Positions 1 to 56,494 of a stretch of DNA of 64,000 nucleotides are shown one piece after another. The notes beneath the pieces were generated by a model that ran no database searches, was not told where the DNA came from, and was given only the letters and a program-made list of their open reading frames with translations. Every line of letters starts with the position of its first letter. Position 1 is the stretch's first letter. Both the position numbers and the translations under genes were made by a program. The stretch lies in the IMG/VR virus record IMGVR_UViG_3300044796_000401, one strand, 5' to 3'. This DNA is from a virus. Lineage: Duplodnaviria > Caudoviricetes.

Positions 1-1503
1 TCTGACCTTCTCAACCAGATCATGGTTAAAATCAAGTCTGACAAGGAAGAGGACATCACCGTGGTGCTGGACATCGTTCACACCGAGAAAGCGGCCTACT
101 TGGTCAACGACCCCAAGGCAGCGGAGGAATGGAACGCCGCTCTTCTCGCTTGCGCCAAGCCCGAAGGGGCGGAAAAAGTATGCTCCCTGAGCGGGGTTTC
201 GGCGGCAACGAGTTCCGACCCCATCGGTCCGGTCAACCTCCCGGCGCTCGGCAAGACATCCCTTTATTCGCGGTTCGGCGAGGTCCCCTGCCTTGAGCGC
301 TACGGTCGATCCGACCGGGATGGGTTCTTGGTTTCCGACGCTAGCATCGCGGAAGCTCGGGACGCCATCCAGTTTCTTGCTACGGGGGACGAACGCAAGA
401 ATCGGACGTATGCCGCGATCGGCAAAGATTCGCTGCTGATCGCCTATCTCGACGAGCGCCCCGAACTGGTTGCGGATTATGTTTCCCCGTTCCGGGACAT
501 CGACGAAGCCGACATCAGCCAGTACGAAGAGCGCTGCTCCAAACTGTTCCAGATGCTCCACGCAAAGAAGGTCAGCGGCCTCGACCATTTGAGCGTCTTG
601 GTGATCGAGAAGGTGAACAAAGGAACCAAGCGGGTCGTTTTGGACGAGCACCTCACGGTCGATGCCATCCGCAAGGCAGTTCAAGACTGGCGCGACGGCT
701 TGACCAATTGCCCGACCGTCGAAACTTTTATTCCGCAGAAAAAGGGAGAGCCCGCCAAGTGTGTCAAGAACGAGCCGTTTTCCCCGACCTGGTTCAGCCG
801 CAGCTTCGGCAAGCCGTGGATTCGGGGCGGGGACGAGAACACCAAGATTCGCGGGCTGTCGATCCCCGAAGCCTATTCGCTTTTCCTGCATGGCGGAACG
901 CGGGCGGCGGAGCAAGCGCACACCCTGCTCCAGCGGTATGTCGGCTTGGTCAAGTCCCTCCTGTACGGTTTCGGGAAGGGTGAACAGGGCTTCAAGGTAA
1001 TGGCTCGGCAGGAAGCGCTTCGGCAGGAAGCGCTTCGGCAAGAGGCGCTTGTTGCGGTGTCGATTTTGGGGTTGTTGCTCTACAAACAGGGACGGTTGAA
1101 GGAGGAATACATGCGGGACATTTATTTTGCGATTGGGCAGGGCTGCAAGGCAGCCGACGGCTTGCACAAGCGGTATTGCGCAGGAGTTCGGGACGGCGAC
1201 GTGCCGTCGCAACTGCTGGGCAACTCCTCGCTGACGGCCATCATCAGGAACCCGGCCAAGGGCCTGAAGATGCTGCTCGGCGACAGCCGCCTGCGGGTCT
1301 ATATGGGCTGGGTGGAGCAGAACGGCGACGGCCTCGGCATCGGGTTCAAGCGCCAGCTTGAAGCCGTAGCCGAAGCGATTTCCGGGCAGGACCTGCCGAA
1401 GCGCTTGACCCCCGAGCAGGAAGCGGAATTGATGCTGGGCTGGCTTGCCCCCCTTCCGAAGCTGGCGAACAGCGGCTCGGACAAGACAGTTGCACAGCAG
1501 TAG
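1..1503 (+). CDS. cas8c: Cas8c (Csd1)-like large subunit of type I-C Cascade; 5' end probably upstream of the window
   Basis: Frame is open from base 1 (SDLLNQIMVK...). C-terminal YFAIGQGCKAADGLHKRYC...VPSQLLGN resembles the Cas8c/Cas11c region. Lies directly upstream of cas7 and a CRISPR array. Confidence 0.75.
   Translation, partial: SDLLNQIMVKIKSDKEEDITVVLDIVHTEKAAYLVNDPKAAEEWNAALLACAKPEGAEKVCSLSGVSAATSSDPIGPVNLPALGKTSLYSRFGEVPCLERYGRSDRDGFLVSDASIAEARDAIQFLATGDERKNRTYAAIGKDSLLIAYLDERPELVADYVSPFRDIDEADISQYEERCSKLFQMLHAKKVSGLDHLSVLVIEKVNKGTKRVVLDEHLTVDAIRKAVQDWRDGLTNCPTVETFIPQKKGEPAKCVKNEPFSPTWFSRSFGKPWIRGGDENTKIRGLSIPEAYSLFLHGGTRAAEQAHTLLQRYVGLVKSLLYGFGKGEQGFKVMARQEALRQEALRQEALVAVSILGLLLYKQGRLKEEYMRDIYFAIGQGCKAADGLHKRYCAGVRDGDVPSQLLGNSSLTAIIRNPAKGLKMLLGDSRLRVYMGWVEQNGDGLGIGFKRQLEAVAEAISGQDLPKRLTPEQEAELMLGWLAPLPKLANSGSDKTVAQQ
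1006..1050 (+). repeat. 15-bp tandem repeat x3 inside cas8c (RQEAL x3)
   Basis: CGGCAGGAAGCGCTT twice, then CGGCAAGAGGCGCTT; in frame. Confidence 0.9.
1111..1503 (+). CDS. cas11: Putative internally translated Cas11c small subunit (130 aa)
   Basis: GGAGG at 1101-1105 and an in-frame ATG at 1111. Internal Cas11 translation from cas8c is established for type I-C. Confidence 0.55.
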   Translation: MRDIYFAIGQGCKAADGLHKRYCAGVRDGDVPSQLLGNSSLTAIIRNPAKGLKMLLGDSRLRVYMGWVEQNGDGLGIGFKRQLEAVAEAISGQDLPKRLTPEQEAELMLGWLAPLPKLANSGSDKTVAQQ

Positions 1504-1507
1504 CGGT

Positions 1508-1565
1508 GTCGCCCGGTGCAATATGGCAAGTGGAAACACTTCCGGCTTCGGGCGTGAATTGAAGA
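1508..1565 (+). other. Repeat-like hairpin between cas8c and cas7
   Basis: GTCGCCCG...CGGGCG stem (1510-1515/1549-1554) followed by TGAATTGAAG, matching the 3' handle of the array repeat. Inner hairpin AAGTG-GAAA-CACTT. Confidence 0.55.
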
Positions 1566-1614
1566 AGGAAGCAAATTTGGGTGGCGACCTACCGCCGATA
1601 CATGAAAGGCTTTT

Positions 1615-2520
1615 GTGAAGAACGCGAAGGAACTGAAAGAACTGAACCGCGCAACCCTGCTGCTCGTGGTTGAGGCGGTGAACTCCGGGATCAACCAAGA
1701 CCCGGACAACGAGAGCGACCCGCGCACCCAGCCGGATGGGCGCGGGCTGTGCACTCCCGTGTCATTCAAGGCGAAGCTCCGCACGCTGGTGGCCGACAAG
1801 GAATTCAACCTCTGGAAGGAACTGTCCAAGAACCTTTCGTTGGCGGACAAGGAATTCGACGTGCTTGAGCGCCGGGACACGGTGCTGAAAGAAATCTTCG
1901 ATATGACGCCGGAAGCGTTCAAGAGCAAGTATTGGGATGCCCGGTTGTTCGGCAACACCGCGCTTGAAGGCAAGGACTCGGGCGGTGAGAAGGCGGAAAA
2001 GGACCGCTTCGTCCGCACCGGGGTCGTGCAGTTCGGGCTGGGCGTCAGCGTTTGCCCGGTGGACATCATCCGCCTGACGACCACTGGCCAGCGCGCCGTG
2101 CAGGCGGGCAAGAGCCGCGCCATGGCTGCGCTGGGATACAGGGTCGTCAAGCACGGGCTGTACGTGATGCCGGGGTATGTCAACCCCGCCGTAGCCTCGA
2201 AGAGCGGCTGCACCGCGACCGACGTGGAACTCATGAAGCGCGTCATTCCCTACGCCTATTCGCACACTACCTCCTATGTCCGCAGCGAAATCAACATCCT
2301 GCACGCATGGTACGTGGAGCACAAGTCGCCCCTCGGGTCGTGCCCCGACTGGAAGATCATCGAGGCCCTCACCCCGAAGCGGATCGGCGACCCGGAGACG
2401 CCGAGCCAGTCCCGCAAGGACTACGAAATCCCTTCCGCGCTGCCGGAAGAACTCCGCAAGCAGGTCAAGTCGGCCGTGGACCTGATGGAGTACATGGCAC
2501 AAGCGACCGACGCGAAGTAA
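1615..2520 (+). CDS. cas7: Cas7 (Csd2) backbone subunit, type I-C
   Basis: NQDPDNESDPRT, TPVSFKAKLR, YWDARLFG, GVVQFGLGVSV, HGLYVMPGYVNP..A.KSG motifs of Csd2/Cas7c. GTG start. Confidence 0.9.
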   Translation: MKNAKELKELNRATLLLVVEAVNSGINQDPDNESDPRTQPDGRGLCTPVSFKAKLRTLVADKEFNLWKELSKNLSLADKEFDVLERRDTVLKEIFDMTPEAFKSKYWDARLFGNTALEGKDSGGEKAEKDRFVRTGVVQFGLGVSVCPVDIIRLTTTGQRAVQAGKSRAMAALGYRVVKHGLYVMPGYVNPAVASKSGCTATDVELMKRVIPYAYSHTTSYVRSEINILHAWYVEHKSPLGSCPDWKIIEALTPKRIGDPETPSQSRKDYEIPSALPEELRKQVKSAVDLMEYMAQATDAK

Positions 2521-2576
2521 GGATGCTCGCAAACGGCGGGGCAGCACGTTTATTTGCATAGACTTGCTGCCCTGGA

Positions 2577-3308
2577 CTTGTCAGGTACTTGAAACTATCT
2601 GTGAATTGAAACATGCAGACAAGGGGCTTGGAAGCCGCGTGGAATATCTTGTCAGGTACTTGAAACTATCTGTGAATTGAAACCAAGTCACTTGCACGGG
2701 CTGCACAAACGGTTCCACCTTGTCAGGTACTTGAAACTATCTGTGAATTGAAACGTGAAAAACCTGCGCTCCCAGCTTCCGATTCCCGCTTGTCAGGTAC
2801 TTGAAACTATCTGTGAATTGAAACCAAGACACAAGGCACAGTGACCGTTCAGTCTTGCTCTTGTCAGGTACTTGAAACTATCTGTGAATTGAAACTGAGC
2901 CCCCATCGGGCGGCGTACCACGGGAAGGCCTTGTCAGGTACTTGAAACTATCTGTGAATTGAAACACGTTCTGCGCCACGTAGGATGCGGCCTTGTCGGC
3001 CTTGTCAGGTACTTGAAACTATCTGTGAATTGAAACATTTCCGTTCCGGGAATTTGCGACATCATGCCTGGCCTTGTCAGGTACTTGAAACTATCTGTGA
3101 ATTGAAACATTACCCGCAATGGGGCGGTGACCCCCGCATCGACTTGTCAGGTGCTTAAGACACCTGTGAATTGAAACATGTTATGCTGGTCTTACAACAG
3201 TTAGCCGCACTGCAAGGTGCGTGAATTGAAACAATCCCGAGGCGAATGGCAGGAAGCGGATCAAAGCGTAATGTTTGTCAGGTGCTTAAAACACCTGTGA
3301 ATTTTAGG
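2577..3308 (+). CRISPR. CRISPR array, 11 repeats / 10 spacers
   Basis: Eight identical 36-bp repeats CTTGTCAGGTACTTGAAACTATCTGTGAATTGAAAC start at 2577, 2648, 2719, 2789, 2860, 2930, 3001 and 3073, with 34-36 nt spacers. Variant repeats at 3143-3177, 3210-3232 (internal deletion) and 3274-3308. Confidence 0.97.
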
Positions 3309-3392
3309 AGTAGAAATCCTCTGGAAGTTGCAGAGGAACGATTTTATATTTGAATATTCGTAGAAAATTCTAAAGCTTGAGAGTGGGGTTTT

Positions 3393-3878
3393 ATGCCTTT
3401 TACTTCTCGTCATCTTGGCGAATTTTCTTATTGCCCCCGGCTCTTTTTTCTCGAAGAAATCGAAGGCTTCGATGCGGAGTCCTCCGACACCGAAACAGGG
3501 CATTATGTCCACCAACCCCATGAAGCCAAGGTTCGCGCTCGCCACAACGGTGGCTGTAATCAACCCCATGAAGTAAGAGTTAGATGCGGTCTTCAAAAGG
3601 CCGCAAACGGGCTTCTCGATAGAATACGTGCCTTGCCGCAAACCAAAGAGGCACAACGAAGGATGGGTCTCATCTATGGTCGCAAAAACGTCGAGAGCGG
3701 ACAGATCGCAAGTTTGAGAACACCCGAGCACCAAGCAAAAGCTGGTCGCATCGGCGGTTTTATCAGCCGCCACAACTGCTGGCATGTCAGGGGATTTTCT
3801 CGAATCGGCAAGTGGTATCCACCAAAGCCAAACCCCAAATGCCGCCTCTGTGCAGAATCCGCCAGTAAAAGTCTGTAA
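3393..3878 (+). pseudogene. cas4: Chimera: Cas4 N-terminal fragment fused to a mobile-endonuclease C-terminal tail
   Basis: HLGEFSYCPRLFFLEEIEGFDAESSDTETGHYVH is a Cas4-type N-terminus, but no nuclease core follows. The C-terminus matches tails of ORFs 30648 and 39860. Confidence 0.6.
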
Positions 3879-3894
3879 ATCAACAGTTTGGGAG

Positions 3895-3923
3895 TAGCCA
3901 AAACCCCTCGACCCCTGTATACT
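3895..3923 (+). promoter_or_regulatory. Phage promoter motif TAGCCA-17-TATACT, ATG 6 nt downstream
   Basis: TAGCCAAAACCCCTCGACCCCTGTATACT; the motif recurs about 10 times in intergenic positions. Confidence 0.7.
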
Positions 3924-7332: not shown

Positions 7333-7653
7333 ATGTCTTCTTTCTCTAAGCGGTTTCCCGACCTCCGACCCGGCGAGTACGAAGAGATCGGCGTCCCCGT
7401 TGGCATCCTGAGTCAATTGCCCAAGGGGATTTCCGTCCGCGTGTTCGCGACGCCCTCGCGCACCCACGCCAGCGAGGGATATTTTATCCAAGCCACAAAA
7501 AACGCCAAGGCGGGCTGGTCGAACAGGACGGCCACGATCCAATGCTCCTGTCCCGGCTCCATGCTGAGGTGCGCCCTTGTCCTTCTGGGGCTCGTCAAGA
7601 CCCCGTGCAGTCATGCGCGGGCATTGCGCATGGCGCTCAAGCGGGGATTGTAG
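7333..7653 (+). CDS. SWIM-type zinc finger protein
   Basis: CSCP...PCSH motif; AGGAG RBS. Confidence 0.55.
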   Translation: MSSFSKRFPDLRPGEYEEIGVPVGILSQLPKGISVRVFATPSRTHASEGYFIQATKNAKAGWSNRTATIQCSCPGSMLRCALVLLGLVKTPCSHARALRMALKRGL

Positions 7654-7682
7654 TAGCCGAAATCCCCCGGCCCCTGTATACT
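7654..7682 (+). promoter_or_regulatory. Promoter TAGCCG-17-TATACT; probably drives the operon ending in the pentamer array
   Basis: TAGCCGAAATCCCCCGGCCCCTGTATACT. Confidence 0.7.
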
Positions 7683-8847: not shown

Positions 8848-9423
8848 ATGAAATACATAGTTGAAGTAAAGGGGATGGAAGGCTCCAGCCTTCTGTTCGG
8901 CAAGCACATCGAGTCCCCGAAACGAGATGGAGAAAACGAAGGAGCCTATGAAGACCGCGTATGGCGGGAACGCCTACACGTCGATTCCGAGGGCTTCGTT
9001 GTTTTCCCGGTCGAGGGTTTCAAGCGCTCGCTTGAAACCGGAGCCAAGGGAAAGAAAACCGGAAACGGCAGGCAGACTCTCACCGACTCGTTCCTCAAGG
9101 CGGTCGTGAGCAACAATGCCTTTGCCCAGATTCTCACCCCTAAGGGCAAGCCGATCAAGGCGGATAGCGTGGAACACCTCTGCTTGTTCGTTCCCAGCAA
9201 GGGCGAACGGAACGGCCCCAAGCGGGTCGCCAAGAACTTCCCGTGCATCCCTGAGTGGAAGGCGGCATTTCCCTTGACCGTGCTTCTCGACGACCTCATC
9301 ACCATGGACGCCATCAAGCGGGTTGTTCCCGATGCTGGGCTGCTTGAGGGCATCGGCTCCATGCGTGCCGGGAACGGCAACAATAACGGACGATACGAAC
9401 TCGTTTCCATCCGCAAGGCGTAA
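8848..9423 (+). CDS. Solo RAMP/Cas7-like RNA-binding protein (Vipr-like effector)
   Basis: VVFPVEGFKRSL resembles the Cas7/Csm3 'IP..SLKG' motif. C-terminal G-rich loop AGLLEGIGSMRAGNGNNNGRY. 191 aa; abuts the repeat array. Confidence 0.75.
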   Translation: MKYIVEVKGMEGSSLLFGKHIESPKRDGENEGAYEDRVWRERLHVDSEGFVVFPVEGFKRSLETGAKGKKTGNGRQTLTDSFLKAVVSNNAFAQILTPKGKPIKADSVEHLCLFVPSKGERNGPKRVAKNFPCIPEWKAAFPLTVLLDDLITMDAIKRVVPDAGLLEGIGSMRAGNGNNNGRYELVSIRKA

Positions 9424-9430
9424 ATCTGAC

Positions 9431-10236
9431 GAGACCAGAAGCAGGGACTTTCGAGCCTCTGCTCCTGCTCTCAAGGCAGGAATCCGATCCGATCTGATGG
9501 GATACGACATGACAAGATGCGACTGGAACCGATATGATGCGACATGCTGAGATTAGAGGCAAGGGGCTTCGGCCCTTTGCTCCTGCTCTCAAAGGCAGGA
9601 CTTAGACCTGACCCGATAAAATACGATGTGATATGACCCGGTGGGACGTGACAAGACCCGACACGTTGAGATTCGAGGCAAGGGGCTTCGGCCTTTTGCT
9701 CCTGCTCTCAAGGCAGGCTGTGATTAGATAAGATATGATGGGACGTGACGGGACGTAACTTGACGCGCCAAGCTGAGATTCGAAGCAAGGGGCTTCGGCC
9801 CTTTGCTCCTGCTCTCAAGGCAGGCTGAGATAAGATGCGACGTAACAGGGTGTGATGTGACGTGATTTGTTAAGACGTGGCGGGACATGGCGAGACCAGA
9901 GGCAAGGGGCTTCGGCCCTTTGCTCCTGCTCTCAAAGCAGGAATCGTTAAGATAAGAATAGATGCGGCGCGATGCGATTCGATTGGATTGGAAGGGATTG
10001 GTTCTGATAGGTTGAGTTCAGAAGCAAGGGGCTTCGGCTCTTTGCTCCTGCTCTCAAAGGCAGGATGCGATTTGATTTGATTCGATTGGATTGGACAGGA
10101 TTGGACACGATGGGACCAGACATGTTGAGACCTGAAGCAAGGGCTTTCGAGCCTTTGCTCCTGCTCTCACGGATGGGATGCGATGTGATGGGACATGACG
10201 TGATGGGACTGGATAAGACGCGCTGAGACGAGACAC
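9431..10236 (+). ncRNA. Array of 7 structured ~50-nt repeats alternating with GAY-NN pentamer tracts (putative gapped guide RNAs)
   Basis: Repeat consensus TGAGA-N3/4-GARGCAAGGGGCTTCGGCCCTTTGCTCCTGCTCTCAA(A)GGCAGG at about 9431, 9548, 9666, 9774, 9892, 10012 and 10125. Intervening tracts parse as 5-mers, e.g. GATCC GATCT GATGG GATAC GACAT GACAA GATGC GACTG. Confidence 0.85.
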
Positions 10237-10243
10237 GAAAAAG

Positions 10244-10267
10244 GAGCCCAGAAATGGGCTCTTTTTT
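10244..10267 (+). terminator. Rho-independent terminator ending the array
   Basis: GAGCCCA-GAAA-TGGGCTC followed by TTTTTT. Confidence 0.85.
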
Positions 10268-10583
10268 GTTTTCCCAGTATTGTATCCCGAAGCGGAGACG
10301 CACAACGACGGATGCAGTGCGTGTCGATCCTCCATCGCCGGGAAGGAAAGATGATAAGCCTGAGATTCAAGTACTTGTTCCTCATCTGCCCCAACGGGTG
10401 CTACGCACGGGAGTTGCGCGCCATCGGCGGTAGGGCGGCATGCGCCAAATGCGGTTATTGGCTGCTCGTGCTCACGATTGACGACCTGCGGAAGAACGGT
10501 CCCCGGAAGGGGAAGATATGGACGAAGGTGAATCCGCTGTGGACCGGGGGAAAGTGCGAATAGCGTTTGCGGGGGACAGGCGC

Positions 10584-10868
10584 ATGTCGCGCCAAAAACG
10601 GTCCATCAAAAACCGCAGAGTAAGCTGGCACGCCATCACCGTGCCGATGGGCGGGCGGACCTCAAAGGTTATCTACGTTACTGACAAGCAGCTTGCCCGG
10701 CTCAACGCCGTCCCGGTCGGCAAGGAAGTGTTCCTGAGCAACGCCTACTGCATGATCGGCAGCGGCTGGGTGATCCGCACCGTGGACGGGTTGCAACACA
10801 TGCCGTTCCCGAGCGGCGCGAGCAGGGACGAGGACGTTTGCCTGCTGGAAAATATGATGAAGGATTAG
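10584..10868 (+). CDS. Hypothetical protein
   Basis: ORF with GGGGA upstream, in a run of + strand genes. Confidence 0.45.
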   Translation: MSRQKRSIKNRRVSWHAITVPMGGRTSKVIYVTDKQLARLNAVPVGKEVFLSNAYCMIGSGWVIRTVDGLQHMPFPSGASRDEDVCLLENMMKD

Positions 10869-10924
10869 CCGTATCCTTTTGACTGCGTTGCAAGCCCTTT
10901 GCTTTTAATACAATACAGTAGAGG

Positions 10925-10953
10925 TAGTTAGAATCGCCCGGCCCCTGTATACT
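10925..10953 (+). promoter_or_regulatory. Promoter TAGTTA-17-TATACT
   Basis: TAGTTAGAATCGCCCGGCCCCTGTATACT. Confidence 0.65.
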
Positions 10954-11000
10954 ATTGTGGAAGTCAACCCACTTTCCCTTCACGGGTACGGAGGCCGTAA

Positions 11001-11552
11001 ATGAAAGACATAGTAGCAGTTCATGAAGCGGGTCATGCGGTCGTTGCCGCTTTATTGCATTTGCCGTTCGAATACGTTGAAATCTATGACGAAGCCGTTC
11101 CCCTTGAAGATGGATATGTAGGCGGACAAGTTTGCTTGAAATTTTCCCATCCGAAGACCGTCAGATGTTTTGTTAGGAGAGGAGAGGAGTATATTCCCAG
11201 AACAGAAGATGATCTTCGCAAGGCATACGCCAAAAAAGCCAAAAAATACATCGTTATGTATTTTGCCGGAATGGCAGCGGTTCGTCACTTCCCGGCGGTA
11301 TCGGAGGCGGAAATTTTGGAGGGGGGAACCAAGGATTTGGAGCAGATCAGGGATTGGAAAGCCGATGCGGGGCTTACGGACTTGGACGTGGAGCAATGCA
11401 AGCGGAAAGCGGAATCCTTGGTCCACAAACACTTTTTGGGCATTGGATGGGTTGCAAAGCTTCTGGCGGAGAAAAAACGGCTTACAAGCCGGGAAGTTCG
11501 GAAGAACATTTTGATGTGTTGGAACACGAGGAATTCGGCACGCTGGAGTTGA
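11001..11552 (+). CDS. Stand-alone M41 (FtsH-like) metallopeptidase domain
   Basis: VAVHEAGHAVVA, ...AGMAA, G..KDL motifs; GGAGG RBS. Confidence 0.75.
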   Translation: MKDIVAVHEAGHAVVAALLHLPFEYVEIYDEAVPLEDGYVGGQVCLKFSHPKTVRCFVRRGEEYIPRTEDDLRKAYAKKAKKYIVMYFAGMAAVRHFPAVSEAEILEGGTKDLEQIRDWKADAGLTDLDVEQCKRKAESLVHKHFLGIGWVAKLLAEKKRLTSREVRKNILMCWNTRNSARWS

Positions 11553-11715
11553 TCAGCAAGCTTTCCGACGCCGTGCGGAACACCGTTCGCTGCGGCCTCA
11601 CGGCGGGCACGTCGGTGGCCGTGATCGGCAAGCAGGGCGCGGCCCTCGACGACGTTTACACGAAGGATTACCCCGCTGTTTTGTTTGTCAACGTGTATCC
11701 CGAGGAAAAGAAGAA

Positions 11716-12159
11716 ATGACAGAGAAGCGCATCTACGTGGTGATCGCCGAGACGGTGGATACGCCGTTGGGCGTCGTGCATCAAGTCCCCGGTCGCATGG
11801 CGGCGCAGGGCGGGCACGCCCTCAGCCGCATGAAGATGCGCCGCCTGATCGAGGATATGCGCAGCAAGAGGCATCCCCGCACTTTCGAGCGCCTGGAAGC
11901 ATTGGCGGACGAGAAGATCACCACGATCTGGAAGTCCTGCCGGGACAGCCGGGAACTTGAGCACATCCACCGCCTGCTCGCCAAGGCGAGGATCAAGCAC
12001 TGCGATTTCGAGGACGAGAACGACGAGGTTTACGGCACTTACGACGACGGTGCGGGCTGCCATCCGCGCACGGCGCTGGCGACGGTGCCTGTTTATCCCG
12101 AGCAGGTGATCGACATCGCTGATTACTTGCCGCTTTGGAAACCAAAAGGAGACGATTGA
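11716..12159 (+). CDS. Peptidyl-tRNA hydrolase PTH2-like protein
   Basis: YVVI..., GRMAAQGGHA, TTI, D..., T.LA..P pattern of the PTH2 family. Confidence 0.65.
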   Translation: MTEKRIYVVIAETVDTPLGVVHQVPGRMAAQGGHALSRMKMRRLIEDMRSKRHPRTFERLEALADEKITTIWKSCRDSRELEHIHRLLAKARIKHCDFEDENDEVYGTYDDGAGCHPRTALATVPVYPEQVIDIADYLPLWKPKGDD

Positions 12160-12181
12160 CAATGAAATTCCTGTTTGCAGG

Positions 12182-12211
12182 TAGCTAAAATCCCCCGGCC
12201 CGATGTATACT
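12182..12211 (+). promoter_or_regulatory. Promoter TAGCTA-18-TATACT, ATG 6 nt downstream
   Basis: TAGCTAAAATCCCCCGGCCCGATGTATACT-AGGGGC-ATG. Confidence 0.7.
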
Positions 12212-12217
12212 AGGGGC

Positions 12218-12478
12218 ATGAACACGAACTCCGCTTTGGTTGTTCGAATCCCGGCAGGGACCATAACCCTGCCCGACAACGACCAGTGGACCAACCGCTT
12301 CGAAATCCACTCCTCGTCCTCAAACCGTGTTTATATCATCGCACAGAATAAGTCTGGTCGGTTCTGGGGGTGTTCATGTTTTGGGTGGGTACGCCACGAG
12401 CATTGCCGCCATCTGGACTCTCTCGGACTCCCCGGCGATCACCAGCCGCGTGAAGCCCGTTTGACGGGGGGCAAGTAA
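12218..12478 (+). CDS. SWIM zinc finger protein, likely leaderless
   Basis: CSC.GW..H.HCRHL. Confidence 0.6.
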   Translation: MNTNSALVVRIPAGTITLPDNDQWTNRFEIHSSSSNRVYIIAQNKSGRFWGCSCFGWVRHEHCRHLDSLGLPGDHQPREARLTGGK

Positions 12479-12879
12479 TGGCTCGCCGCTCCGCCAATCC
12501 GAAGCCGAAGCGCACATTCGCCGACATTGATGCGGCTCGGAAACGTTACAATCCCGAAGCCGAAGGCTACGGCAACCCGTCCGAGTGGCGCGGGGCTTTC
12601 TACCAGCGCATGGGATTCGAGGAAGCGCAGCGGGTAAAGGAAGAAGCACAAGCCGCTGGCAAATGGCGCTCGGAATATCGTATAATCGGTGATATGGCTG
12701 GCGTCGTCCTCGGCGAGAACAGCACATGGGGCGAGATCAAGGCGGCTTTCCGCAAGGCGGCGCTGAACTGCCATCCCGACCGAGCGAAGGGCAACGGGAT
12801 GTCCGAGGAGACCGCCAAAGTGAAATTCCAAGAAGTGCAGGCCGCTTACACCATCCTGGCGGAAAGGTACGGAGAATAA
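12478..12879 (+). CDS. J-domain (DnaJ-like) protein
   Basis: EIKAAFRKAALNCHPDR...KFQEVQAAYTIL. Confidence 0.85.
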   Translation: MARRSANPKPKRTFADIDAARKRYNPEAEGYGNPSEWRGAFYQRMGFEEAQRVKEEAQAAGKWRSEYRIIGDMAGVVLGENSTWGEIKAAFRKAALNCHPDRAKGNGMSEETAKVKFQEVQAAYTILAERYGE

Positions 12880-33119: not shown

Positions 33120-33824
33120 ATGGAGCTATCTAGTAGGCGCATCAAAAATCTGGCGGGGCGAACAATGGGCTGCTGGGCCGTGCTGGATTGTGCGGGCAAC
33201 AACAAGCACGGGCAAGCCATGTGGAACTGCCGATGCGGATGCGGGCTTGAACGGGTCGTGCGGGGGGGTCGGCTTTTGGGGGGTCGGAGCATTTCCCGTG
33301 GCTGCGAGAAAATCAGCAGCCTCACCGGACGCAAATTCGGTAAATTGCTGGTTCTACAGCGGCTTCCCGCTTCATCCGCAAGACAGTCTGTTTGGCTCTG
33401 CCGCTGCGATTGTGGCGAAAAAGGCGCTGTTCATGGCACCAATTTATTGAGAAACCTAGTTAAAAGCTGCGGCTGTTTACGCCGTGAAATCACGCAAGCT
33501 CGAATGACTGGGCCTTCCAATCCCGGCTGGAGGGGAGGCATAACCCCTGAAGTCCAACGGATTAGAAACCATCGAAAAACGAGAAACTGGAAACGATCCG
33601 TATTTAAGCGGGACAACTTTACTTGCCAAAAGTGCAATGTCCGTGGCGGACGATTGGAAGCCGACCGCCACCCAAGGCCGTTTCGAAGCTTGGTCGTGGA
33701 AATCACAGGGTTGTACGGCACAGCCAATCTACACGAAAAGGCGCTGGAATACGCCCCGATGTGGGATATCGACAACGGCCGAACACTATGCTATGAATGC
33801 CACGGAGGAAAATCAAATGCTTAA
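33120..33824 (+). CDS. HNH homing endonuclease with Cys-rich N-terminal repeats
   Basis: GRKFGKL..WLCRCDCG..SCGC; WRGG; CQKC...RTLCYECH. Confidence 0.75.
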   Translation: MELSSRRIKNLAGRTMGCWAVLDCAGNNKHGQAMWNCRCGCGLERVVRGGRLLGGRSISRGCEKISSLTGRKFGKLLVLQRLPASSARQSVWLCRCDCGEKGAVHGTNLLRNLVKSCGCLRREITQARMTGPSNPGWRGGITPEVQRIRNHRKTRNWKRSVFKRDNFTCQKCNVRGGRLEADRHPRPFRSLVVEITGLYGTANLHEKALEYAPMWDIDNGRTLCYECHGGKSNA

Positions 33825-35397
33825 ATCGGCCGATAAACTACCAAATATGCACAGCACGGAGGTTCGTGGATTGCCGATAGTCATTCAATGGCCTCGCGGC
33901 AGCATCCGGGTGGGCAAGCGCGAAGACGGCACCGAATTCAAGTCAGAGATGAAGTCAGATTACGGTTATGTGCCCGGAACGACGGACGCCGATAATGATG
34001 GCCGTATTGATGTGTACATCGGGCCGGACGAAAAAGCCGAATATGCCTATGCGGTTGAACAACTCAAGGATGACGGCTCGTTCGACGAATACAAAGTCAT
34101 GTTGAATTTCTCCTCTTTGGAAGACGCCGAGGAAATATACGCCGTCCATGCGGGGGAGGACCGCCTCGGGGAGATTCAGGAAATCCCGTTCGACGAGTTC
34201 GCCGAACAGGTTCAGGCCCACCAAAAAACACGGACACCGGATCGCCAAGAAAAACTGGAAGAAAAGACCGCCGGGGAGCACGCCCTGATCGAGGCTTACG
34301 TAAAAAATTATGCCCATGAAATTGACTTCTATGAAGAGGTCGCCCATCTTGCACAAGACAAGCTCGACTCCGCCTTGCAGGACGGGGGCATCAAGGCGGT
34401 CGTGTCATCCCGTGCAAAACGCCCCAGCCGCCTAGAAAAGAAGCTCCTCAAGCGCGAGTCGGAGAAAGGCTACAAGACCTTCCGCAATATTACCGACGAC
34501 ATCGTGGACCTCGCGGGATGCCGCGTGGCGCTCTATATGCCCAAAGACCGCGAAGAGGTGGGGGCGATCATCCAAGAACTGTTCACCGAGGTCCGCCCGA
34601 CCAAACACTTTCCCGAGGATAGGGGGCCGGGAGACTCCCTCGGCTATGTCGCCGACCACTATTTGGTGAAGCTCAAGCCCGAAGCCCTGCGGAAGAAAGA
34701 ATTCCGGTATGCCGACACGCAGGTCGAGATACAAGTGGCGAGCGTGCTGATGGCCGCTTGGGCTGAAGTTTGTCACGACCTCATCTACAAGCCGGAGAAG
34801 GGCAAGCTGACTCCCGCGGAAATGAGCCTGCTCAAGGACCTGAACGACATCGTGCAAATGGGCGAGCAGCAGCTTGAGAAGCTCCAGAACGCCATCGAGC
34901 ACCGCACGTCGGAAGACCTGAGGTTCGACATCGTGGCGACGCTGGAGAAGCTCGCCAAGATCGGCCGCGGCGACGTGGAAGAGTTCAGGTTGCAGGCGGG
35001 CAAGATCGCAGCCGGATTTAACCCCAAGGACATCTGGCGCTACGGCGGCTGGCTCCTTTCCAATACGAATGTCGTGCCTTCGGTGGGGAACGAGAAGACG
35101 GCTTTGGATAACGGCGCGGCGAAATTCGACCTTGACATGTCCGGGGCGATGGTGATCGAGCGCAAGGGTGGCGACCGCCACGCGGAAGCCCGCCTTATGG
35201 ACTTCATCAAGAAATTCCCCCCGCCCGAAACTCTTCTCCTGAAGTTCAAAAGCGTCGGCGCGGAAGAGGATGCCGCAAAGCTTCTGAAGGACCTCGGCGT
35301 CACTGCTGCGGCTCCGACACAGCCCGCCAAGAGCCAATGGGCATCGTACTTGAAAGCCCGGCTGGCGATGATCAAGTCCGGCAGAAACCCCCAGTAA
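33817..35397 (+). CDS. Polyvalent protein: inorganic-pyrophosphatase-like domain plus RelA/SpoT nucleotidyltransferase
   Basis: DYGYVPGTTDADNDGRIDVYIG..EYKVM; SRAKR...KKL, DLAGCRV, GYVADHYLV, VEIQVASVLMAAWAEVCHDLIYK. Confidence 0.85.
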   Translation: MLKSADKLPNMHSTEVRGLPIVIQWPRGSIRVGKREDGTEFKSEMKSDYGYVPGTTDADNDGRIDVYIGPDEKAEYAYAVEQLKDDGSFDEYKVMLNFSSLEDAEEIYAVHAGEDRLGEIQEIPFDEFAEQVQAHQKTRTPDRQEKLEEKTAGEHALIEAYVKNYAHEIDFYEEVAHLAQDKLDSALQDGGIKAVVSSRAKRPSRLEKKLLKRESEKGYKTFRNITDDIVDLAGCRVALYMPKDREEVGAIIQELFTEVRPTKHFPEDRGPGDSLGYVADHYLVKLKPEALRKKEFRYADTQVEIQVASVLMAAWAEVCHDLIYKPEKGKLTPAEMSLLKDLNDIVQMGEQQLEKLQNAIEHRTSEDLRFDIVATLEKLAKIGRGDVEEFRLQAGKIAAGFNPKDIWRYGGWLLSNTNVVPSVGNEKTALDNGAAKFDLDMSGAMVIERKGGDRHAEARLMDFIKKFPPPETLLLKFKSVGAEEDAAKLLKDLGVTAAAPTQPAKSQWASYLKARLAMIKSGRNPQ

Positions 35398-35460
35398 AAC
35401 AGGCAAAATGACAACTTCGGAGAAACCTCGATTTTCCAGTACCTTAAGATAGAGGGTATC

Positions 35461-38439
35461 GTGGAATCATCATTGCTCAAATCCGCCATCAGTGTCGCAC
35501 CCGAGAACGGAAAAATCGCCAAGACCACGGCCAAGCATGCCAGCACGCAAATCAACCTCCCGGAGGAACTGGCCGAGAAGCTACGGGAAGCCGTGCGGGA
35601 GGTCATCCCGGAGTCCGACCTCATGGCTGACGGCTACGAGGAAAATTTGCACGTGACGACCAAATACGGGGTTAAAGAGTCCGAAGACGACCTCGTCAAA
35701 GCGGTTGCCGGGCAAGCTGCGTTCGTCGTCGAGTTGGGCAAGACGCACGTCTTCGACCCGAGCGAGTCCAGCGACGGCGCGGCCCCGGTAGCGGTCTTGG
35801 TCGATGCTCCCGAGCTTCACGAACTGCATACGGCTATCGACAAGGCCATGGGCGTCAAGGAAGACAGCTTTCCGGACTACTTACCGCACGTTTGTTTGGC
35901 GTACGTCAAGCCCGAGGCCGCGAGCAAGTACGAAGGCTTGGACATCTTCAAAGGCATCGCCTTCGAGGCCGACAGCATCACCATCTCGAAGAAGGACAGG
36001 GTTTGCGTCGCCGTGCCGTTCGGGAAGGCCAAGACGGCGGCGAGCGACAGGGGAAGCTGCGTGACTCTGGCAGCCGATGCGGAGGGATTCCCGCCCGCGG
36101 TGGTCGTCCGCTTTCCGCAGCGCGGCATGCAGTGGCGTCAGGTGCTCAAGATTGTAAAACAAATTGTCGGAGAGGTCGCCGGGAAGCGCGTCCCTTGGAG
36201 AGACATCCGTATCTTCGAAAACCCGTGGGGCGGATACGCCGAACAGCAAGAGAGATTCCCCGAATGGGCGGCCAAGCAGAAACTCGTGATGTACGACATC
36301 ATGCCCGACGGGTCGTTCCAATCGGTCGGGAAGCCCCATGCCCCGCTTGCGATCCAAGGCAGCCACAAGACCCCGCCGCTCTCCGACACCGTGTACGAGA
36401 ACCCGGAAATCGGGCAGGAGACCAATGCCTATGCCGACATCCCGGAGCGCGTGAAGGGCGTCGAAGCCCTTCCGACTCTGGAGGAACTTGCGCCGGAGAT
36501 GTTCGAAAAGAAGGCAGCCGGATTTCCATCCTTGGAAGAAGTGCTCGAATACGGCGGCGGCAGCGTCGAAAGCGTGGTCAACGACCTCGTGGACTGGGAA
36601 CCGCTCCGCAAAAAGGTAAAGAATTTACCTGAAGCCGAGCAGGAAACCGCCCTCAACAAGCTGGGCTTGAAGGAGGTCACCCGGCGTTGGAAACAAGTCA
36701 ATGCGCTCATGCAATCGCACAAATTCCCGCTCACCGTCTACCGCGGCGTTTGCGCGAACAGCGCGAAAGAGGTCGTCACCGATCCCGATTTCGTGTCCAA
36801 GGAAAGCATAACGGGACGTGGGCTGGGGGTCTATTGGGCATACGACGAAGATAGCGCCTACCTGAGCAAGGAGCTTCTCCACAATTGTCCGGCGTGGGGC
36901 AAGAAGGGCATCATCATGTTCCGCGCCGTCATCTCCGATCCCTCCAAGGTGGATTGGCTGCATACGGCTTGGACAAACCTTGCGGCGGAGGACGAGAAAG
37001 AAGTCCATCTGGTCAAGGGCGCTCGAATCCAAGTCACGGGCGTGAAGAAATATGGCGAGACCACATGGCGCAATCCGCCTCCGAGGTTCCGCAGCGTGAC
37101 CGCCGTCTTCGCCGAGGCGCAGAACCAAGTGCAGCACACCGACCACAAGCCGGTCGGCATGTACAAGACCCCCAAGCGCGACCCGTTCCAAGAGGAATGG
37201 GATTTGTTCGCTCCGAAGGACGAGCCCGAGGCGCAGGAGCCGGAGACGAACGCCCCCATGACGCCGGGCGGGGAGATCAAGAGCCTTTTGAACAAGGCTG
37301 CCGCCAAGGCAACCTACGTGACGCTGTGGGATTTGGTGAATATCGCTGGCGGGCCGCTCCGCATCAAGAACCAGTGCAAGACCCCCGAGGAGGCGCTGGC
37401 ATTGCTCAACGACACCCACGCGAAATACCTCAGGAACTTGCGGACGAAATTCATCGGCATGCATGTGGTTCCCGAAGATCCGTCAAGGATCGCCGCTTGG
37501 GTCGAGCAGCTGTATTCCGAAAACAAAAAGACTGCCGCGCCGCTTCACGATGAAGCGAAGCAAAAGACATATTATCATGGCACCGATGAAGAAGCTCGGG
37601 CTCAAGCCATTCTCAAAGAGGGCATCCAGCCCCGCGAAATTATCCTGCCAAACAAAGCCAAGAGCCGGGCGATGCAAGCTCCGGTGCCGGATCGTGTTTA
37701 TCTGACTGACAGCTTTGGTTATGCCGCGATTTACGCCTTGGGCGGTCAAGCGTTCGGAATGGGGCTCAGCGACCGGACGAAAACCAATTATACCGCCGAC
37801 ATGTGGCTCAAGAATCACATCAAGGCGGGAGAATACGGATACATTTTCGAGGTGCGGGGAGCCGACCTCGCCGGGGATGTGGTGCCTGACGAGGATAGCA
37901 TCGGCGAAGCCCTCGCGTGGATGATCGACTACAAAAAGGATACGCGCAGGCTGGAAGAGCTTGAGACCCAGCCCGAACGCTGGAAGGGCGAGAAGGAAGG
38001 CTTGCAGCGCGGCTTGAAGGCCGTCATGGAGCAGCCGATCGCCAAAGCCCCGGAAGACATTCAAAACCGGCTTGCCTGGCTCAAGACTTACCTGACACCG
38101 GCGCAACTGGACCGCATCGACGAAGCGGCCGTGCAGTCGCAGGTCGGCAAAAAGCTCCAGAAGCGGCTGCCGCCCGATGTCGCCGAATGGCTTCTCGACC
38201 ACGGGGCTCACGTTGCGCACCAAGGCCCCGTATTCCCGGATCGCTGCTGGCGCTTCGGCAAGAAAGACGCCCTATATACCACAGACTTGCAAAGCATCCT
38301 GCAAGAAGTCCCCATTCGGAAGATAGCCGCGGCACAGCCAGTCGCCCCCGTGTATTTCTACATAGAAGTGCCGCGCTGGGCTCGGGAACGCTTCTGTCGC
38401 CTTCACCACATTGAAGAGAAGGACAAATACGATGTTTGA
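35461..38439 (+). CDS. Polyvalent protein: 2H phosphoesterase plus two ADP-ribosyltransferase-like domains
   Basis: LHVTTKYG / PHVCLAY (paired HxT/C motifs); VYRGV..GVYW..EKEV; YYHGT..ILKEGI..VYLT...YIFEV. Confidence 0.75.
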   Translation: MESSLLKSAISVAPENGKIAKTTAKHASTQINLPEELAEKLREAVREVIPESDLMADGYEENLHVTTKYGVKESEDDLVKAVAGQAAFVVELGKTHVFDPSESSDGAAPVAVLVDAPELHELHTAIDKAMGVKEDSFPDYLPHVCLAYVKPEAASKYEGLDIFKGIAFEADSITISKKDRVCVAVPFGKAKTAASDRGSCVTLAADAEGFPPAVVVRFPQRGMQWRQVLKIVKQIVGEVAGKRVPWRDIRIFENPWGGYAEQQERFPEWAAKQKLVMYDIMPDGSFQSVGKPHAPLAIQGSHKTPPLSDTVYENPEIGQETNAYADIPERVKGVEALPTLEELAPEMFEKKAAGFPSLEEVLEYGGGSVESVVNDLVDWEPLRKKVKNLPEAEQETALNKLGLKEVTRRWKQVNALMQSHKFPLTVYRGVCANSAKEVVTDPDFVSKESITGRGLGVYWAYDEDSAYLSKELLHNCPAWGKKGIIMFRAVISDPSKVDWLHTAWTNLAAEDEKEVHLVKGARIQVTGVKKYGETTWRNPPPRFRSVTAVFAEAQNQVQHTDHKPVGMYKTPKRDPFQEEWDLFAPKDEPEAQEPETNAPMTPGGEIKSLLNKAAAKATYVTLWDLVNIAGGPLRIKNQCKTPEEALALLNDTHAKYLRNLRTKFIGMHVVPEDPSRIAAWVEQLYSENKKTAAPLHDEAKQKTYYHGTDEEARAQAILKEGIQPREIILPNKAKSRAMQAPVPDRVYLTDSFGYAAIYALGGQAFGMGLSDRTKTNYTADMWLKNHIKAGEYGYIFEVRGADLAGDVVPDEDSIGEALAWMIDYKKDTRRLEELETQPERWKGEKEGLQRGLKAVMEQPIAKAPEDIQNRLAWLKTYLTPAQLDRIDEAAVQSQVGKKLQKRLPPDVAEWLLDHGAHVAHQGPVFPDRCWRFGKKDALYTTDLQSILQEVPIRKIAAAQPVAPVYFYIEVPRWARERFCRLHHIEEKDKYDV

Positions 38440-51691: not shown

Positions 51692-51722
51692 CTGTGTTTC
51701 TCCTCCTAAAGGGGTTTGAAAG

Positions 51723-56392: not shown

Positions 56393-56494
56393 AGTTTGTC
56401 CTTTAGCCCGTGGGGCCATCGCTGGTTAATACTGCTTTTCCCATAGTTTGTCCTTTAGCCCGTGGGGCCATCGCTGGTTAATACTGCTTTTCCC
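56384..56494. repeat. 52-bp exact tandem duplication
   Basis: TTTTCCCATAGTTTGTCCTTTAGCCCGTGGGGCCATCGCTGGTTAATACTGC x2, then TTTTCCC. Confidence 0.92.

Follow-up and report, generated by a model that had tools for sequence, protein, structure and literature searches.

Introduction

Phages that carry CRISPR-Cas systems are presumed to turn them against competing elements or the host, and such systems also provide editing tools. To our knowledge, the Acidobacteriota are a phylum with almost no phage genetics. The kind of locus reported here is already known from the adaptation-less CRISPR systems of huge phages (Al-Shayeb 2020) and from CreR (Liu 2023). Those huge-phage loci, which include a "type I-C variant" (Al-Shayeb 2020; PMC7162821), resemble the present one in their huge-phage carrier, their Cas5d-type processing without Cas6, their small array, and the absence of Cas1 and Cas2. 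Vibrio phage ICP1 likewise carries a class 1 system, of type I-F, which is used against a competing element (Seed 2013). In CreR and CreA (Li 2021; Liu et al., 10.1101/2023.03.10.532045; Shmakov et al., 10.1101/2023.03.03.530964), degenerate repeats flank a guide that matches an effector cas promoter through its seed alone and beside a PAM, as is proposed here; for type I-C, creA-like elements beside effector promoters have been reported (Liu et al., 10.1101/2023.03.10.532045). Finally, phage Cracr, viral crRNA-like RNAs, and RNA anti-CRISPRs (10.1101/2024.10.29.618823; PMC10651486) are crRNA-like units or solitary repeats, encoded by phages, that load Cas proteins for purposes other than cutting, a use proposed for the present locus as well.

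Here, we analyzed a stretch of 64,000 nucleotides of viral DNA (the window; IMG/VR record IMGVR_UViG_3300044796_000401), and a public 208-kb contig, L001, was the source of the DNA upstream of it. Judged from its sequence, the locus is very likely the effector half of a type I-C CRISPR-Cas system on a huge phage, with fixed guides and without adaptation genes. The fuller explanation, in which this effector half is joined by a CreR-type guide at the array tail, we consider likely as well.

Carrier of the locus

The window contains phage-type genes for homing endonucleases, an intein, an RNA ligase, recombination exonucleases, an InPase-RelA/SpoT protein, and an Acb1-like protein. The stretch is carried by contigs of 208, 241, and 270 kb and was present in 20 runs from 12 studies, which sampled peat in 2025, ponds in 2019-2020, and viral metagenomes in 2023. 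Based on this gene content, its presence in the viral fraction, and contigs of up to 270 kb, the carrier fits an uncultured huge phage that lives in peat and pond water. The same three lines of evidence support the preliminary description, which had proposed a phage-encoded type I-C Cascade with an array and without adaptation; a chromosomal flank or cas1/cas2 upstream, which it had named as grounds against this reading, were both absent from the 8.4 kb of upstream DNA read on L001. One run assembles the phage at a contig depth of about 4,000-fold.

We consider it extremely unlikely that the carrier is instead a megaplasmid or a defense island of a bacterial chromosome. Such a carrier would account for the lack of any capsid or terminase gene within the 72 kb read and for the neighborhood of the locus, since cas3 and cas5c on L001 are accompanied by a DUF2779 nuclease and a type II restriction-modification pair that adjoins the locus, as in bacterial defense islands. 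However, four viral-fraction runs contain the stretch, the exonuclease finds its best database match in an uncultured huge phage of 485 kb, and the abundant phage-type genes are accompanied by no chromosomal housekeeping gene in either the upstream DNA (L001) or the window.

Effector genes

The effector genes within the window are the following.

1 to 1503, plus strand: cas8c, C-terminal 500 of 628 codons (PADLOC Cas8c PDLC01562, E 2e-94, profile positions 188-652 of 658)
1111 to 1503, plus strand: internal cas11c (small subunit), predicted in the reading frame of cas8c with 130 codons, an in-frame ATG, and AAGGAGG 5 nt upstream
1615 to 2520, plus strand: cas7 (Csd2-like), 301 amino acids, GTG start (PF05107, E 5e-42)

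The preliminary description had called cas8c and cas7 from the letters, and the PADLOC Cas8c profile and PF05107 confirmed both. The cas8c gene starts at position 8003 of L001, 384 nt upstream of the window, and the full-length protein of 628 amino acids matched PDLC01562 with an E value of 1e-109. It scored 15 bits against Pfam Cas_Csd1, under the cut-off of 27, and is thus, by its sequence, a divergent Cas8c. In type I-C, Cas11c is reportedly made by internal translation (McBride 2020), and we infer an internal cas11c start within cas8c here. Cas7 reached 145 bits against PF05107 (cut-off 33) and 89 bits against NCBIfam TIGR02589, under the cut-off of 182; on these profiles it is a member of a variant clade of the I-B/I-C Cas7 family. 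Its closest relatives in the collections searched are 57% identical.

Upstream, where the preliminary description had suggested looking for cas5 and cas3, L001 encodes both, each preceded by a predicted sigma-70-like promoter. Cas3 (PADLOC Cas3c, E 6e-98) is of the HD nuclease plus SF2 helicase type and shares 40% identity over its full length with the Cas3 of one relative. Cas3-HD profiles cover residues 20-191, and the HD motifs can be read in the sequence (H11, HD62-63, H87, HH110-111, and DAD181-183). Cas5c matched Cas5c profiles with an E value of 2e-18, and its top match in the PDB is the type I-C Cas5 of Neisseria lactamica, annotated as "pre-crRNA processing endonuclease"; the N. lactamica Cas5 and Cas3 (8G9S and 8G9U) are the best solved relatives. 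No locus gene matched a Cas6 profile. The phage proteins retain most of the columns that are at least 95% conserved in relatives, namely, 37 of 42 in Cas5 (five positions altered), 77 of 88 in Cas7, 110 of 117 in Cas3, and 26 of 28 in Cas8. The full-size set of Cas3, Cas5c, Cas8c (with a predicted internal Cas11c), and Cas7 thus appears to form a complete DNA-cutting type I-C effector, and the word "compact," applied to the system earlier, does not fit it.

In the Cas3 tree, the phage protein is sister to four Acidobacteriota sequences (SH-aLRT 99). This position backs an earlier hint at Acidobacteriota, which are probably the hosts of the phage.

CRISPR array and leader

The array lies 56 bp past the cas7 stop codon (2518-2520), exactly as previously noted.

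2521 to 2576, plus strand: leader of 56 nt from the cas7 stop to repeat 1, with a 7-bp inverted repeat inside
2577 to 3142, plus strand: array proper, 8 identical repeats of 36 nt and spacers S1 to S8 of 34-36 nt (repeat search, cross-assembly comparison, and folding)

No promoter was called in the 56-nt leader, so the array would be transcribed by read-through from the cas5 promoter, P_cas5. The eight exact repeat copies at 2577-3108 have a chance expectation of 0. The repeat length of the preliminary description was corrected to 36 nt because the C before TTGTC is conserved in all copies. Its hairpin stem followed by an 11-nt handle was verified by folding, which gave a 6-bp stem, an 8-nt loop, and then exactly 11 nt, TGAATTGAAAC; the hairpin is weak (-3.8 kcal/mol, z -0.3). 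The handle ends in AUUGAAAC, as type I-C requires, and is one position off all relatives (GAAUUGAAAC versus GGAUUGAAAC).

The GC content of S1 to S8 ranges from 51 to 74%. Protospacer searches returned no target for any of these spacers in any collection searched, and TTC was seen only beside the S9 self-match described below and beside the self-matches of relatives. The suggestion that the spacers target virion genes is therefore unsupported, and an open frame of 11 codons, such as the Thr/Val/Gly-rich frames on which it was built, is expected by chance.

Loss of the adaptation module

No Cas1 or Cas2 homologue was found by tblastn with the proteins of three relatives in 72.4 kb (8.4 kb upstream plus the entire window) of a genome of at least 270 kb, in agreement with the earlier observation that cas1 and cas2 are missing. 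In 84 of 84 bacterial relatives, the order is cas5-cas8-cas7-cas3-cas4-cas1-cas2 where the contig permits. The phage has retained only a remnant of cas4.

3393 to 3878, plus strand: degenerate cas4-like open reading frame of 161 amino acids, in frame but deleted internally and truncated at the C terminus (profiles and alignment)

Cas4 profiles match only residues 5-72 of this protein. It aligns with the two ends of the Cas4 of three relatives, and the GKADVVEF block (nuclease motif I) and the last Fe-S cysteine are missing; cas4 is thus indeed broken, as first described. A 13-nt direct repeat, CAACCCCATGAAG, at 3513 and 3561 marks the deletion junction. With cas1 and cas2 absent and cas4 reduced to a stump, the phage would be unable to add spacers itself.

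Adaptation could nevertheless be provided in trans, by a phage cas1-cas2 pair elsewhere or by the Cas1-Cas2(-Cas4) of a host type I-C system, as host machinery has been proposed for huge-phage arrays (Al-Shayeb 2020; PMC7162821). Eight identical repeats behind older variants (R9 and R11) would fit acquisitions that copy the leader-proximal repeat, and the Acidobacteriota I-C systems that are the nearest Cas relatives possess complete adaptation modules. Against this stands the array itself, which is identical in L001, L002, L003, and, as far as it extends, L005 (four assemblies). Furthermore, no contig with a different sequence at the array edges was found in four runs (peat, pond, viral fraction, and metatranscriptome), although this evidence is weak because k=31 contigs break at repeats. 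The phage repeat, with its stem and GAATTGAAAC handle, was not found in 185,579 species genomes, IMG/VR, or JGI contigs and differs from approximately 1,000 repeats of relatives, so no compatible host array is known. Taken together, we regard acquisition in trans as unlikely and favor fixed guides.

Loss of the adaptation genes, decay of cas4, spacers without targets, a gene order rearranged relative to all 84 relatives, and a long branch in the Cas3 tree (0.99) might also be read as signs of a dead, host-derived relic. This is very improbable, as all four effector open reading frames are intact and retain 88-94% of the conserved columns, the Cas3 HD motifs are present, the eight repeats are perfectly identical, and consensus promoters and a terminator frame the unit. 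Contigs of the locus also occur in a metatranscriptome run; this run contains 37% of the sampled words in low-depth contigs, may include contaminating DNA, and is weak evidence of expression.

Array tail and a candidate self-repressing guide

The array runs beyond 3108, through a variant repeat, a compact repeat-like hairpin with a handle, and a terminal degenerate repeat, and ends at 3309.

3143 to 3177, plus strand: variant repeat R9 of 35 nt, in which the CAGGTG/CACCTG stem is perfect and the handle intact (folding, -7.6 kcal/mol versus -3.8 for the main repeat)
3178 to 3205, plus strand: pseudo-spacer S9, a proposed CreR-like guide of 28 nt with 39% GC (seed match at the cas5 promoter)
3206 to 3232, plus strand: compact repeat-like unit whose 5-bp stem (CGCAC/GTGCG) encloses a 6-nt loop and precedes the exact 11-nt handle (sequence reading and handle search)
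3233 to 3273, plus strand: pseudo-spacer S10, 41 nt (self-match search)
3274 to 3309, plus strand: terminal degenerate repeat with an intact stem and a handle decayed to TGAATTTTAGG (repeat search and folding)
3317 to 3352, plus strand: intrinsic-terminator-like hairpin with a T-rich tail, closing the cas5-to-array unit (terminator prediction)

The terminator hairpin (3317-3337, equivalent to L001 11703-11723) has 7 pairs and the tail ACGATTTTAT.

The first 11 nt of S9 are identical (11/11) to L001 7376-7386, directly 3' of a TTC at 7373-7375. The match lies in a 54-nt cas intergenic region and covers the extended -10 element (TGT TATGCT, L001 7377-7385) of TTGACA-17-TATGCT. This promoter, P_cas5, was predicted by consensus, ranks first among the sigma-70-like promoters of the locus, and precedes the cas5 ATG (L001 7408). 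With a 1-nt bulge allowed, the match grows to 16/17 nt. For all 11 guides in 72 kb, a TTC plus an 11-nt match has a chance expectation of 0.006. S9 is also poorer in GC (39%) than any of S1 to S8 (51-74%). Of 67 relatives, 5 have a unit of repeat plus guide upstream of cas5 whose guide matches a TTC-flanked site of their own, as compared to 0 in cas8-internal controls, and across all loci approximately 7 such matches were seen versus 0.4 expected. In three Acidobacteriota relatives, the guide spans the -35 TTGACA of P_cas5. These analogous units are not homologous to that of S9, which is located at the array tail, whereas the usual place of CreR is upstream of the effector genes.

We lean toward the view that the tail is not plain decay and that its last units make a CreR-type regulatory guide on P_cas5. 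Cascade loaded with S9 would pair through the 11-nt seed at the -10 box without triggering Cas3, resulting in negative feedback on the operon, array included. It is possible, if rather doubtful, that the match has no regulatory role and reflects chance or a mutated old self-targeting spacer in a tail undergoing leader-distal decay. Degeneration is common in leader-distal repeats, and the identity of S9 beyond position 11 is at the random level (7/24). The bulged match of 16/17 nt suggests a longer ancestral self-match. For S10, no TTC-flanked seed of at least 8 nt was found in 72 kb, and the match stands in a single locus, the next Cas7 in the collections being only 57% identical, too distant for covariation between S9 and its target to be read. 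However, a match over a -10 box in a 54-nt intergenic region is far rarer still than the 0.006 expected in 72 kb, CreA and CreR use exactly such seed-only matches, and the same arrangement exists in bacterial relatives. Moreover, R9 and the compact unit retain exact 11-nt handles and good stems, so processing is still possible, and a decayed self-spacer with PAM and seed would still bind the site. On balance, we retain the regulatory guide as the favored reading of the tail.

Solitary repeat between cas8c and cas7

1508 to 1565, plus strand: solitary canonical I-C-like repeat consisting of GTCGCCCG, a 31-nt loop insertion, CGGGCG, and the handle-like TGAATTGAAGA (sequence search)

The 31-nt insertion folds as a GAAA-capped hairpin of its own. 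The sequence GTGAATTGAA occurs in 11 copies in the window (10 in the array and 1 in the solitary repeat), as compared to 0.19 expected. The repeats of relatives have the form GTCGCCCG...CGGGCGTGGATTGAAAC, and the handle in approximately 1,000 of them is GGATTGAAAC; the phage variant GAATTGAA was seen only in the solitary repeat and the phage array.

Cas5c would cleave the operon mRNA at this repeat, so that the cas7 message would begin with a crRNA-type handle 38 nt before its ribosome-binding site, which could uncouple the dosage of Cas7 from that of Cas8c. Alternatively, Cas5c and Cas7 could assemble on the leader of the cas7 message, hiding the ribosome-binding site there. That the phage possesses two RNA control devices of its own, the S9 guide parking Cascade on the cas5 promoter and the solitary repeat as a Cas5c cut site, is a tentative proposal with a low probability of holding in full.

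Proposed mode of action and significance

A sigma-70-like promoter of its own would drive cas3 (HD nuclease plus helicase), and P_cas5 would drive cas5c, cas8c with its internal cas11c start, cas7, and the array as a single unit up to the terminator at 3317-3337. Cas5c would then cleave the transcript where each repeat hairpin ends on its 3' side, releasing crRNAs with the 11-nt handle UGAAUUGAAAC. Cascade carrying S1 to S8 would find TTC-flanked DNA and recruit Cas3 for its destruction, with competing mobile elements or host DNA as the most likely targets.

The locus would equip an abundant peat and pond phage with a full type I-C set, Cas3 included, and indicates that a virus can retain an intact interference half after the loss of adaptation. 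In CreR logic, expression rises when crRNAs titrate Cascade or when anti-CRISPRs block it. If S9 represses P_cas5, this logic would extend to viral CRISPR-Cas, where a phage in competition with rivals that carry Acrs would profit from it; the circuit would be the first CRISPR self-regulation described for a virus-encoded system. Whether a CRISPR repeat can serve as an mRNA processing signal could be tested on the solitary repeat.

Comparison with known systems

The closest type I-C systems are those of Acidobacteriota/Terriglobia metagenome-assembled genomes (L020, L035, L043, and L059), with identities of 45-47% for Cas3, 51-53% for Cas5, 52-53% for Cas7, and 29-30% for Cas8. These bacterial relatives share the 11-nt handle of the I-C type. 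The phage differs in having cas3 upstream of cas5 under its own promoter, no adaptation module, an array directly after cas7, and a 36-nt repeat with a different, AT-richer stem and the handle GAATTGAAAC instead of GGATTGAAAC. In the huge-phage I-C variant (Al-Shayeb 2020; PMC7162821), an unrelated helicase replaces Cas3, whereas a genuine Cas3 with HD motifs is present here, along with a Cas4 stump and a proposed self-targeting regulatory guide. ICP1, in contrast, keeps cas1 and cas2-3, acquires spacers, and is of another subtype with Cas6f processing. Cracr and RNA anti-CRISPRs hijack host Cas proteins, whereas the unit described here would act on the Cas proteins and promoter of the phage itself. 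As compared to CreR and CreA, which stand alone upstream of the effectors, the phage unit is virus borne, predicted from sequence, and embedded at the distal end of a real array. Its S9 would bind on the non-template side of the -10 box; in the Acidobacteriota relatives, the guides are directed at the -35 box.

Effector and adaptation genes of the phage type I-C locus

The exact Cas7 protein was present on 25 public contigs, and contigs with the gene reached up to 241 and 270 kb. The longest of those fetched, the phage assembly L001 (ENA scaffold, 208,088 bp), supplied the DNA upstream of the window, with its position 8387 corresponding to window position 1 and with 4 differences over 12,520 shared positions. 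The preliminary description had reported cas8c, cas7 and an array following cas7, which was correct, as shown by profile matches and by repeats that start 56 nt past the cas7 stop; it had also proposed that cas5 and cas3 be sought upstream, and both were located there on L001.

Effector genes of the locus
L001, upstream of cas5c: cas3, 735 aa; Cas3c profile, E 6e-98; Cas3-HD profiles separately match residues 20-191
L001, upstream of cas8c: cas5c, 200 aa; Cas5c profiles, E 2e-18
Window 1-1503: cas8c, C-terminal 500 residues, frame running off the left edge; PADLOC PDLC01562, E 2e-94, profile positions 188-652 of 658
Window 1615-2520: cas7; PF05107, E 5e-42

The Cas3 N terminus contains the HD-domain motifs H11, HD62-63, H87, HH110-111 and DAD181-183, and the nearest solved structures are those of Cas5 and Cas3 from the type I-C complex of Neisseria lactamica. 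The Cas8c fragment was not recognized in Pfam and NCBIfam profile searches, and Cas7 scored below the cut-off of the I-C-specific NCBIfam model. Within cas8c, an in-frame ATG at 1111, preceded by AAGGAGG, is located 130 codons ahead of the stop. An internal start within cas8c reportedly yields the Cas11c small subunit in type I-C systems; the arrangement at 1111 is that of such a start, from which we infer a predicted Cas11c. Furthermore, the phage proteins retained 88-94% of the columns conserved at at least 95% in alignments with 35-82 relatives, and the interference module seems to be complete and under selection. No relatives of Cas7 were found in IMG/VR, and a look-up of the JGI form of this protein (V-start) returned no record.

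A tblastn search with Cas1, Cas2 and Cas4 queries from three relatives detected no Cas1 or Cas2 homologues in 72.4 kb (L001 1-8386 plus the window), so that within this span the reported lack of cas1 and cas2 is borne out, and no complete cas1/2 locus was found upstream. The gene cas4, which had been described as broken, is indeed so: the ORF at 3393-3878 aligns to Cas4 at both its ends, and is devoid of the RecB motif I block (GKADVVEF in relatives) and of the last cluster cysteine, with a 13-nt direct repeat at the deletion junction. Two other assignments were rejected. Rather than the second half of cas4, the ORF at 3888/3930-4754 encodes an intact phrog_298 recombination exonuclease (E 2e-31), whose weak matches to Cas4 stem from the common PD-(D/E)xK fold. 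Nor does the cas4 ORF carry a homing-endonuclease tail, as its tail matches no family and aligns with the Cas4 C terminus. All 84 bacterial relatives fetched have, within contig limits, the order cas5-cas8-cas7-cas3-cas4-cas1-cas2 (53 of them complete); therefore, the phage appears to have lost the adaptation module and to have shifted cas3 ahead of cas5.

Repeats and spacers of the array

The array opens with eight identical repeats (0 copies expected by chance) and has spacers of 34-36 nt. The repeat unit was counted as 36 nt because the C ahead of TTGTC is invariant. It folds into a hairpin (6-bp stem, 8-nt loop) that leaves exactly 11 nt, TGAATTGAAAC, on its 3' side, in agreement with the stem and 11-nt handle described initially. 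The repeat is absent from the GTDB species genomes (185,579), IMG/VR and the JGI contigs, and none of the Rfam CRISPR-DR families matches it. The identical copies precede the variant repeats R9 and R11, which have the stem CAGGTG/CACCTG. R9 and R11 are older variants, and such an order would result from successive acquisitions in which the leader-proximal repeat was copied; the array was thus once extended, either by a since-lost module or in trans. The spacers of the array proper, S1-S8, have the same sequence and order in the phage assemblies L001, L002 and L003, and L005 is concordant over its reach; across these assemblies, the array is static.

The comparison of the spacers with viral databases suggested in the preliminary description did not yield a protospacer. 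A blastn search of the array against 50,697 GenBank phages gave chance matches to the repeat only (E ~3; none at E ≤0.5), and there was no match in the PLSDB plasmids, in IMG/VR pattern scans with S1, S2, S3, S4, S6 and S8 (positions 6, 12, 18 and 24 free) or in a JGI metagenome scan for S1. Similarly, S1-S8 matched nothing beyond chance within 72 kb of the phage itself, and nothing in the loci of the 84 relatives. The contigs from sequencing runs (k=31), being broken at repeats, are unable to show crRNA ends or array variants; parts of cas8c, of cas7 and of 3189-3554 are represented by RNA contigs of low depth, a weak sign of expression.

A putative self-repressing guide in the array tail

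Beyond the array proper, the tail contains two pseudo-spacers, S9 and S10, and variant repeat structures.

Elements of the array tail (window positions)
3143-3177: R9, perfect stem and exact handle
3178-3205: S9, 28-nt segment
3206-3232: compact hairpin CGCAC/GTGCG with the exact 11-nt handle
3233-3273: S10, 41-nt segment
3274-3309: last repeat, handle decayed, with a terminator after it

Every guide was scanned against 72 kb. Nucleotides 1-11 of S9 are identical to L001 7376-7386, directly 3' of TTC, which is the type I-C PAM. The matched site is within the 54-nt gap between cas3 and cas5 and lies over the extended -10 (TGT TATGCT) of TTGACA-17-TATGCT, the predicted cas5 promoter; among the sigma-70-type promoters of the locus, this one and that of cas3 ranked joint first. 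Over all 11 guides and both strands of the 72 kb, TTC plus 11 nt would be expected 0.006 times by chance, and a match at a cas promoter specifically far less often. If a 1-nt bulge is allowed, 16 of 17 nt match; identity is random beyond. S9 is AT-rich (39% GC), unlike S1-S8; S10 produced chance-level seeds only.

What defines the CreA and CreR RNAs is a match to the effector promoter that is PAM-flanked and limited to the seed; with these RNAs, Cascade binds without recruiting Cas3 and transcription is repressed; creA-like elements in type I-C systems were noted by Liu et al. (10.1101/2023.03.10.532045). On the evidence of this one locus, we lean toward the reading that the array tail encodes a CreR-type guide that would act on the predicted cas5 promoter and repress its own system.

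CreR-like units in bacterial relatives

In the 84 loci of bacterial relatives, approximately 7 TTC-flanked seed matches of at least 11 nt were seen, as compared with 0.4 expected. A unit was located at most 600 nt upstream of cas5 in 5 of 67 loci, against 0 in control regions inside cas8. Three Acidobacteriota MAGs (L016, L018 and L062) contain mini-CRISPR units ~60-130 nt upstream of cas5 with a guide that starts with TGTCA; in the two sequences read (L018 and L062), the guide has complementarity to the cas5 promoter at its -35 TTGACA and at GAA. We regard the three units as clear candidates for CreR-like elements of bacterial type I-C systems. Whereas these guides are located upstream of cas5 and, in L018 and L062, are directed at the -35, that of the phage is at the array tail and directed at the -10 box, and would therefore be an independent solution to the same problem.

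A solitary repeat between cas8c and cas7

An additional repeat element is found at 1508-1565, between cas8c and cas7, and consists of GTCGCCCG, a 31-nt insertion, CGGGCG and TGAATTGAAGA. Both its ends correspond to those of the canonical I-C repeat in relatives, which reads GTCGCCCG...CGGGCGTGGATTGAAAC, and the insertion folds as a separate GAAA-capped hairpin. The window has 11 copies of the motif GTGAATTGAA (ten in the array and one in this element) versus 0.19 expected, and the element shares with the array a G-to-A handle variant present in virtually none of ~1000 repeats of relatives, in which the cas8-cas7 gap measures only 0-60 nt. No target was found for the element or for the 35 nt that follow it, with seeds at chance level only. 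The element is possibly a Cas5c processing site that would separate the cas7 message, or it may prime assembly on the leader of cas7.

Carrier, origin of the cas genes and host

The stretch was detected in 20 runs from 12 studies: peat (2025), pond (2019-2020) and, from 2023, four viral-fraction metagenomes; the contig depth reached ~4000 in one peat run. The flanks of the locus do not look chromosomal: the window contains phage-type genes, namely GIY-YIG and HNH homing endonucleases, an intein, an RNA ligase, exonucleases and a ClpB-like ATPase, and no housekeeping genes. The best GenBank phage match of the exonuclease was a 485-kb uncultured phage. When the four Cas proteins were summed, the closest relatives were Terriglobia/Acidobacteriota MAGs. 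In a Cas3 tree (quick method, midpoint root, relatives picked by Cas7 similarity), the phage is sister to four Terriglobia/Acidobacteriota MAGs (SH-aLRT 99), on a long branch. These data support, without proving, an Acidobacteriota origin of the cas genes, and Acidobacteriota is the likeliest host phylum, again short of proof.

The window also encodes, at 33637-38439, a 586-aa protein with InPase and RelA/SpoT nucleotidyltransferase domains and, beside it, a 992-aa protein with an Acb1-like/2H phosphoesterase domain; the two are candidate enzymes of anti-defence or nucleotide signalling, and possibly virion cargo. The GIY-YIG homing endonuclease (38411-39316) has a 60-nt in-frame tandem repeat at 38994-39113, and the intein, with an HNH insert, is inside a 679-aa protein (49796-51835). 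Seven copies of a ~118-nt unit, each with a conserved 44-nt hairpin-like core, are at 9431-10170, downstream of the ORF at 8848-9423, and a 52-nt unit is perfectly duplicated in tandem at 56384-56487.

Genes and promoter motifs next to the locus

Genes within L001 704-4616, directly upstream of cas3
Type II methyltransferase, E 1e-112
GmrSD_N+HNH restriction endonuclease (REase_II), E 7e-142
DUF2779/Cas4-like nuclease, 575 aa

These genes and the CRISPR locus make up a phage-borne island for defence or competition. Two small ORFs of 49 and 56 aa (L001 4804-5107), which separate the DUF2779 gene from cas3, belong to no family and could encode regulators or anti-defence proteins. They are preceded by TAGCCA-17-TATACT (L001 4706-4734), a copy of the promoter-like motif GTAGCC...CCCC...TGTATACT that is dispersed before phage genes, with further copies at window 3893-3923 and 7652-7682. 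The promoters of cas3 and cas5 are instead of the TTGACA/TATNNT type; the difference suggests that unmodified host RNA polymerase transcribes the cas genes. In one bacterial relative (L007), cas4 is separated from cas1 by an insertion (10108-12657) comprising a Bro-N protein, a YoeB/YefM toxin-antitoxin pair and a RhuM-like gene, and a solitary CRISPR repeat is found just ahead of cas1 (12545-12581).

Comparison with known phage CRISPR systems

Taken together, the data support the initial interpretation of a phage type I-C Cascade with an array and no adaptation module. The viral crRNA-like RNAs published so far hijack host Cas proteins (10.1101/2024.10.29.618823; PMC10651486), and we found no description of self-regulation of a virus-borne CRISPR-Cas system in the literature searched. 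Almost all CRISPR systems of huge phages are devoid of Cas1, Cas2 and Cas4, and an I-C variant has been described among them (Al-Shayeb 2020; PMC7162821). The present locus belongs to this kind and features a genuine Cas3, an Acidobacteriota affinity and, probably, a CreR-type self-repressing guide.
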